64,000 bases of DNA from Escherichia coli (GTDB lineage Bacteria; Pseudomonadota; Gammaproteobacteria; Enterobacterales; Enterobacteriaceae): assembly GCF_003334355.1 (NCBI RefSeq), contig NZ_QOWP01000002.1; one strand, written 5' to 3'. The position numbers and the translations under genes were made by a program. The notes beneath the pieces are model-generated. The model made no database searches, was not told where the DNA came from, and saw only the letters and a program-made list of their open reading frames with translations. Shown here piece after piece: positions 6,164-8,791 of the stretch (its first letter is position 1; every line of letters begins with the position of its first letter).

Positions 6164-8791
6164 TTATTCTTCTTCTGGCTCGTCGTCAACGTCCACTTCC
6201 GGAGCGATTTCATCGTCCCCTTCCGCGGCACTGCCGTCGATGGTATCCAGATCTTCCTCGTCAACCGGTTCAGCAACACGTTGCAGACCCACTACGTTTT
6301 CATCTTCCGCAGTACGGATGAGGATCACGCCCTGGGTGTTACGGCCCACGATGCTGATTTCCGAAACGCGAGTACGTACCAGCGTACCGGCATCGGTGAT
6401 CATCATGATCTGGTCGCAGTCATCTACCTGTACCGCGCCAACAACTAAACCGTTACGTTCGGTAACCTTGATGGAGATAACCCCTTTCGTCGCACGCGAC
6501 TTGGTTGGGTATTCCGCCACTGCGGTACGTTTACCGTAACCGTTTTGCGTTGCGGTGAGGATTGCGCCATCGCCACGAGGCACGATCAGAGAGACGACTT
6601 TATCGCCTTCACCTAAGCGAATACCGCGAACACCGGTGGTGTTGCAGCCCATCGCACGGACAGAAGACTCTTTAAAGCGCACCACTTTACCTTCAGCGGA
6701 GAACAGCATTACTTCGTCTTCGCCGCTGGTCAGGTCAACGCCGATCAGCTCATCGCCGTCAACCAGTTTGATCGCCACTTTACCGGCGGTACGCAGACGG
6801 TTGAACTCGGTGAGGACAGTTTTCTTCACGGTACCGTTAGCGGTCGCCATGAAGACTTTCACGCCTTCTTCAAACTCGGTCACTGGCAGGATCGCAGTGA
6901 TACGTTCGTCCTGCTCCAGCGGCAGCAGGTTGACGATCGGACGACCGCGCGCGCCACGAGTGGCTTCCGGCAACTGATAAACTTTCATCGAATAGACGCG
7001 ACCACGGCTGGAGAAGCACAGAATATGGTCGTGAGTGTTCGCCACCAGCAGTCGGTCGATAAAGTCTTCTTCTTTAATACGTGCGGCAGATTTACCTTTC
7101 CCGCCACGACGCTGCGCTTCGTATTCAGAAAGCGGCTGATACTTAACGTAGCCCTGGTGAGAGAGCGTCACTACCACATCTTCCTGAGTGATCAGATCTT
7201 CCAGGTTGATGTCTGCGCTGTTGGCGGTGATTTCAGTACGACGTTTGTCACCGAACTGTTCACGAACCAGCTCCAGTTCTTCACGGATCACTTCCATCAA
7301 ACGATCGGCGCTACCAAGAATACGCAACAGTTCCGCGATCTGATCCAGCAGCTCTTTGTATTCGTCGAGCAGTTTTTCGTGCTCAAGGCCGGTCAGTTTC
7401 TGCAAACGCAGATCCAGAATCGCCTGAGCTTGCTGTTCGGTCAGGTAGTACAGACCATCACGCACGCCGAACTCTGGCTCCAGCCATTCCGGACGCGCAG
7501 CATCGTCGCCAGCACGTTCGAGCATCGCGGCAACGTTGCCCAGCTGCCACGGATTAGCAACCAGCGCAGTTTTCGCTTCTGCAGGCGTCGGCGCATGACG
7601 GATCAGTTCGATGATCGGGTCGATGTTCGCCAGCGCCACGGCTAATGCTTCAAGGATATGAGCACGATCGCGAGCTTTACGCAGTTCGAAAATAGTACGA
7701 CGGGTCACCACTTCACGGCGGTGACGAACAAACGCCGCGATGATGTCTTTCAGGTTCATGATCTTCGGCTGACCATGGTGCAATGCCACCATGTTGATAC
7801 CGAAAGAAACCTGCAACTGGGTCTGGGAGTAGAGGTTGTTGAGCACAACTTCACCGACCGCATCGCGTTTCACTTCAATCACGATGCGCATACCGTCTTT
7901 GTCAGACTCGTCACGCAGCGCGCTGATGCCTTCCACGCGTTTTTCTTTTACCAGTTCCGCAATCTTCTCGATCAGGCGCGCTTTGTTTACCTGATACGGA
8001 ATTTCGTGGACGATAATGGTTTCACGACCGGTTTTGGCGTCAACTTCCACTTCTGCGCGAGCGCGGATATACACCTTGCCGCGACCGGTACGGTAAGCTT
8101 CTTCAATACCGCGACGACCGTTAATGATTGCCGCCGTCGGGAAGTCCGGCCCCGGGATGTGTTCCATCAGCCCTTCAATGCTGATGTCTTCATCATCGAT
8201 ATACGCCAGACAACCGTTGATGACTTCCGTCAGGTTGTGCGGCGGGATGTTGGTTGCCATACCTACGGCGATACCGGAAGAACCGTTCACCAGCAGGTTA
8301 GGAATTTTGGTTGGCATGACGTCGGGAATTTTTTCCGTGCCGTCATAGTTATCAACGAAATCGACCGTCTCTTTTTCGAGATCGGCCATCAGTTCATGGG
8401 CAATTTTCGCCAGACGGATTTCCGTATAACGCATTGCCGCCGCAGAGTCGCCGTCGATGGAACCGAAGTTACCCTGACCGTCTACCAGCATGTAACGCAG
8501 CGAGAATGGCTGCGCCATACGGACGATCGTGTCATAAACCGCCGAGTCACCATGGGGATGGTATTTACCGATTACGTCACCAACGACACGGGCAGATTTT
8601 TTATAGGCTTTGTTCCAGTCATTGCCTAGTACGTTCATGGCGTAAAGTACGCGACGGTGTACCGGCTTCAGGCCATCTCGGACATCTGGCAGCGCACGGC
8701 CAACAATGACCGACATCGCATAATCCAGATAGGAGCTCTTCAGCTCTTCCTCAATGTTGACCGGTGTAATTTCTCTCGCAAGGTCGCTCAT
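6164..8791 (-). CDS. gyrA: DNA gyrase subunit A
   Basis: 875-aa ORF beginning [47 protein letters not shown], with QRDR motif [20 protein letters not shown] and an acidic C-terminal tail ending DDEPEEE. Confidence 0.97.

Follow-up and report, generated by a model that had tools for sequence, protein, structure and literature searches.

The question raised by this locus is whether the gyrA gene of an Escherichia coli strain carries any of the substitutions by which DNA gyrase loses its sensitivity to fluoroquinolones. An earlier note had answered in the negative for codons 83 and 87. Here, the gene and its surroundings were compared with those of E. coli K-12 and of other E. coli strains. The term window is used for the whole stretch of DNA that was analysed (64,000 nucleotides; 64 kb). 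The gene and the two landmarks that identify its product are located as follows.

6164..8791, minus strand: coding sequence of gyrA (DNA gyrase subunit A), an intact open reading frame of 875 codons plus stop.
8426..8431, minus strand: codons for Arg121 (CGT) and Tyr122 (TAT), within the motif AAMRYTE.
7094..7114, minus strand: GyrA box QRRGGKG, residues 560-566, in the C-terminal domain.

According to the list of open reading frames, the ATG of gyrA is at position 8791; codon n starts at 8791-3(n-1), and the codon numbers increase as the coordinates run downwards. When the predicted protein was compared position by position with GyrA of K-12 MG1655 (b2231, NP_416734.1), which is the alignment that the earlier note had proposed as a check, all 875 of 875 residues were the same and no gap was needed. 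An error in reading frame or numbering was thereby ruled out, as the 875-amino-acid product starting from the ATG at 8791 aligns without gaps to K-12 GyrA. At the DNA level the two genes (both 2628 nt) differ at 11 nucleotides (99.58% identity), and 11 of these 11 differences are synonymous. Family and structure searches gave the same assignment: the protein scored 1310 bits with the NCBIfam gyrA equivalog model TIGR01063 (curated cut-off, 877), and it matched full-length E. coli GyrA as resolved by cryo-EM (PDB 6rks_A) end to end over residues 1-875 with 1919 bits. In genomes with an identical sequence, the gene bears the RefSeq label gyrA.

Tyr122 of E. coli gyrase is the DNA-cleaving active-site tyrosine and resides in the winged-helix domain. 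The GyrA box belongs to the C-terminal beta-pinwheel, has a role in supercoiling and separates gyrase A from ParC, which is devoid of the box. K-12 MG1655 and the window share an identical quinolone-resistance-determining region (QRDR), Tyr122, GyrA box and acidic C-terminal tail, and strain MLI023K1 encodes an identical GyrA protein (RefSeq WP_001281242.1). Given the 100% identity to K-12 GyrA, whose activity is established, the protein would be expected to catalyse negative supercoiling together with GyrB. We are almost certain that the locus is the ordinary chromosomal gyrA of E. coli, that its product is the K-12 MG1655 protein with a fully wild-type QRDR, and that the enzyme should be drug-sensitive.

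The QRDR comprises amino acids 67-106 of GyrA, as stated in PMC9953508 with reference to Yoshida et al. 1990. Its position and those of the two codons of main interest are:

8474..8593, minus strand: QRDR, codons 67-106, with 40 of 40 residues wild type relative to K-12.
8543..8545, minus strand: codon 83, TCG (Ser), wild type.
8531..8533, minus strand: codon 87, GAC (Asp), wild type.

Codon 67 occupies 8591-8593 and codon 106 occupies 8474-8476, both on the minus strand, and the reverse complement around the core of the region reads AAA TAC CAT CCC CAT GGT GAC TCG GCG GTT TAT GAC ACG. Direct reading together with the computed numbering thus bore out the earlier note in its assignment of TCG (Ser) to codon 83 at 8543-8545 and of GAC (Asp) to codon 87 at 8531-8533; the motif of ten residues that it had quoted was found within the QRDR translation, which matches K-12 at 40 of 40 positions. 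Its description of the span 8474-8593 as a wild-type QRDR was likewise correct: the span equals codons 67-106 and is wild type at the level of the protein, with three silent differences in the DNA (K-12 > window: codon 85, GTC>GTT; codon 91, CGC>CGT; codon 100, TAT>TAC). Silent changes at these three codons may be commonly reported polymorphisms. No report of them was found in the literature that was searched; for codon 85, the genome counts given below show that the variant is common.

The absence of the common fluoroquinolone-resistance substitutions at codons 83 and 87, also claimed in the earlier note, extends to the whole protein, because identity at 875 of 875 residues excludes any GyrA substitution relative to K-12 inside or outside the QRDR. 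Within the region, residues A67, G81, D82, S83, A84, D87 and Q106 are all as in the susceptible K-12 reference, and the rarer changes (i) A67S, (ii) G81C/D, (iii) D82G, (iv) A84P and (v) Q106H/R are absent from the 40 residues compared; substitutions beyond it, such as A51V, A119E and A196E, are equally absent from the 875 residues. These statements refer to a consensus assembly, which is blind to a minority subpopulation of mutants.

By a single base change, codon 83 (TCG) can become TTG (Leu), TGG (Trp) or GCG (Ala), and codon 87 (GAC) can become AAC (Asn), GGC (Gly), TAC (Tyr), CAC (His) or GTC (Val). The known resistant alleles S83L and S83L+D87N are variants of the same gene and occur in the same silent-site backgrounds as the window allele; they differ from it in having TTG at codon 83 and AAC at codon 87 in place of TCG and GAC. 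The window gyrA is therefore one transition away from S83L and two away from S83L+D87N.

Sequences flanking the gene were inspected with respect to expression signals. The following elements were recorded:

8836..8844, minus strand: extended -10 element TGTTATAAT (TGnTATAAT), 45 nt upstream of the gyrA ATG.
6127-6144, minus strand: hairpin 1, downstream of the gyrA stop codon, terminator-like in the scan.
6085-6116, minus strand: hairpin 2, followed by TTTTGT, as read from the sequence.

We take TGTTATAAT at 8836-8844 to be the supercoiling-sensitive gyrA promoter of K-12. The scan for consensus sigma-70 promoters missed it, its -35 being weak and no -35 hexamer reaching the threshold; the only promoter-like match of that scan, at 8355-8328, lies within the gyrA coding sequence, and the number of matches was below the shuffle expectation. 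The two hairpins at 6085..6144 could serve as transcription terminators, judging from their sequence. Both the intergenic region between gyrA and ubiG (146 nt) and the spacer between gyrA and yfaA (148 nt) are identical to those of K-12 MG1655, which also shares the order yfaA-gyrA-ubiG with the window, and altered gyrA expression signals were ruled out on the basis of the two identical intergenic regions.

How the wild-type residues bear on drug action is known from published work on gyrase. Quinolones bind the gyrase-DNA cleavage complex via a non-catalytic Mg2+ that is chelated by the C3/C4 keto-acid of the drug, and water molecules coordinated by this Mg2+ form hydrogen bonds to Ser83 and Asp87 (water-metal ion bridge); substitutions of these two residues are the chief source of target-mediated resistance (PMC9953508, PMC11019561). 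Both residues are located on helix alpha4, adjoining the DNA-cleaving Tyr122. With the pair intact, the gyrase encoded in the window would be expected to bind fluoroquinolones normally and to be poisoned by them; established biochemistry combined with the K-12 identity points to drug binding and susceptibility of the enzyme. Since every residue is as in K-12, the encoded enzyme would equal the drug-sensitive reference enzyme, and the strain carries none of the gyrA target-site mutations with which fluoroquinolone resistance in E. coli usually begins.

A wild-type gyrA implies that target mutations in gyrA are missing; it does not by itself establish a susceptible phenotype. The phenotype is not settled by gyrA because parC, parE, gyrB, the regulators marR/acrR/soxR and the genes qnr, aac(6')-Ib-cr, qepA and oqxAB all lie outside the window. 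Susceptibility might thus be reduced despite the wild-type target by loci elsewhere in the genome, namely by (i) qnr, aac(6')-Ib-cr, qepA or oqxAB-type determinants, (ii) efflux via changes in marR/acrR/soxR or (iii) changes in gyrB/parC/parE. We consider this unlikely, an estimate that reflects prior expectation and not anything in the window. That none of these loci, nor any other fluoroquinolone-resistance locus, is found in the 64-kb window between yfaS and nuoL (transferred annotation, see below) leaves room for such a route. Plasmid-, chromosome- and target-mediated resistance are all recognised mechanisms, the plasmid-borne ones including Qnr, the AAC(6')-Ib-cr acetyltransferase and efflux pumps (PMC11019561). 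Some of the strains whose gyrA alleles are closely related carry names suggestive of multidrug-resistant clinical isolates, e.g. PRO_A-1412-6M-A_ESBL. On the other side, the window holds no positive support for a resistance route other than gyrA, and relative to the core chromosome it is free of inserted DNA. That the source strain is fluoroquinolone-resistant in spite of a GyrA identical to that of K-12, by virtue of a determinant beyond the window, is very improbable. Mechanisms other than gyrA mutation, when combined with wild-type gyrA, usually lead to low-level resistance only. If true, this explanation would amount, at best, to an uncommon way of reaching clinically relevant resistance without gyrA.

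The preferred reading, an ordinary chromosomal gyrA, agrees with the surroundings of the gene, which are core chromosome. The gene order yfaT-yfaA-gyrA-ubiG-yfaL is kept as in K-12, and the whole 64-kb window is collinear with the chromosome of strain MLI023K1 (99.66% identity, 4 gap openings, 213 mismatches), an isolate from human stool in Mali. Resistance genes inserted in the window were ruled out by this collinearity with a complete chromosome, which is interrupted by only 4 small gaps over 64 kb. Annotation transferred from the RefSeq record of MLI023K1 places the following genes in the window: (i) yfaS (alpha-2-macroglobulin), yfaT, yfaA, gyrA, ubiG, yfaL, ypaB, nrdAB, yfaE and inaA; (ii) glpQT, glpABC, rpnE, rhamnonate genes, yfaYZ, nudI, ais, arnBCADTEF and pmrD; (iii) menECBHDF, elaBA, rbn, elaD, yfbK-P and nuoNML. 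No tRNA gene was found in the 64 kb. The first 25 kb are about 100% identical to MLI023K1 and a few other strains; in the comparison with MLI023K1 this part contains 5 mismatches (at 207, 3275, 9391, 10456 and 17248). From about 25293, inside glpC, single-nucleotide differences from MLI023K1 become dense, and this step in density near 25290 suggests a recombination boundary and that the window does not derive from MLI023K1 itself.

Several further observations were made in the window. The region of yfaS (1-3683, minus strand) runs past the start of the window; in the closest genome the annotation shows an intact gene for a protein of the alpha-2-macroglobulin family, and in K-12 the gene is a pseudogene (K-12 record). 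For ubiG (8890-9660, plus strand) the program chose the start at 8890 (256 aa), while RefSeq and K-12 place it 48 nt later, at 8938 (240 aa). A match to naRNA4 (Rfam RF02564) was detected between nrdA and nrdB at 16578-16648 on the minus strand (76.4 bits; gathering score, 59.5). Self-matches revealed that the unit of about 80 nt to which it belongs is tandemly duplicated there (copies at 16530-16610 and 16617-16698) and that a further, inverted copy lies between ubiG and yfaL (9684-9766); these units look like ordinary REP/BIME-type repeats. The gene for the deubiquitinase ElaD (51871-53112, plus strand) is an uninterrupted open reading frame of 413 codons; for MLI023K1, the closest complete genome, the annotation gives elaD as a pseudogene that is interrupted by an internal stop. 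Finally, the chromosomal operon for aminoarabinose modification of lipid A (arnBCADTEF) and pmrD, at about 35100-42720, are present as in other E. coli. The arn operon and pmrD relate to polymyxin tolerance.

Two other identities were weighed for the QRDR locus itself. On the plus strand, the program-made list contains an open reading frame of 323 codons (7658..8629) that overlaps the QRDR, and it is hardly credible that this is a real gene. Long antisense reading frames are common opposite highly constrained genes, and the frame in question is situated entirely within gyrA, in antisense orientation. No feature is listed at 7658..8629 in the K-12 record or in the RefSeq annotation of the closest genome, and the frame was rejected as a shadow ORF. 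A second antisense frame inside gyrA (7025-7645, plus strand, 206 codons), likewise unannotated in the records consulted, was treated in the same way.

Practically no probability remains for the idea that the locus is the paralogue parC (topoisomerase IV subunit A), with numbering and resistance reading misapplied: ParC models do match the N-terminal 400 or so residues (TIGR01062 parC_Gneg, residues 11-404), but with 580.3 bits this model stays under its own cut-off of 628.9, while the gyrA model is far above its own (1310 versus 877), and the assignment is ruled out by these family scores, the K-12 GyrA identity over 875 residues and the GyrA box QRRGGKG, with the gyrA neighbourhood (yfaA on one side, ubiG on the other) equally against it. 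Gram-negative ParC resembles the GyrA of the window in the homologous N-terminal breakage-reunion domain, and differs from it in that the window protein possesses the GyrA box and a GyrA-type C-terminal domain. Ser80 and Glu84 of ParC are the equivalent quinolone-binding pair.

To place the gyrA allele of the window among other E. coli strains, 5426 complete E. coli genomes from RefSeq were searched. The gene was present in 5426 of 5426 genomes, several of which have a gyrA with 100% DNA identity to the window gene. Alleles were counted using 30-nt queries covering codons 79-88 in megablast searches with an exact word of 28 nt, so that matches are identical over codons 83-87. The wild-type sequence of codons 79-88 was found in 2653 genomes, i.e. 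48.9%, a lower bound given that other silent variants are missed by the queries; 2014 of them had GTT, the codon of the window, at position 85 and 639 had GTC, which makes GTT85 the commoner of the two among wild-type complete genomes. S83L alone was carried by 484 genomes (8.9%; 412 with GTT85, 72 with GTC85), and the double mutant S83L+D87N by 1702 (31.4%; 1371 with GTT85, 331 with GTC85). The remaining 587 genomes (10.8%), not split by codon 85, have other alleles or other silent variants. In line with these counts, a 120-nt QRDR query gave 15 rows at 100% identity in a spread sample of 40 rows. The wild-type state is the most frequent one even in this genome set, in which clinical isolates are probably over-represented. 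In the same set, one gyrA copy (S83L+D87N allele) was located on a record labelled plasmid, and a few genomes showed two gyrA places; such plasmid-labelled or doubled copies may be due to mislabelled replicons or to duplication.

Taken as a result on E. coli, a wild-type QRDR in a reference-identical housekeeping gene is already known and offers no new biology; its value is that of a routine negative entry when resistance is predicted from genotype. High-level resistance is unlikely with a wild-type gyrA QRDR, and the strain, like any wild-type E. coli, is one mutation away from first-step resistance.
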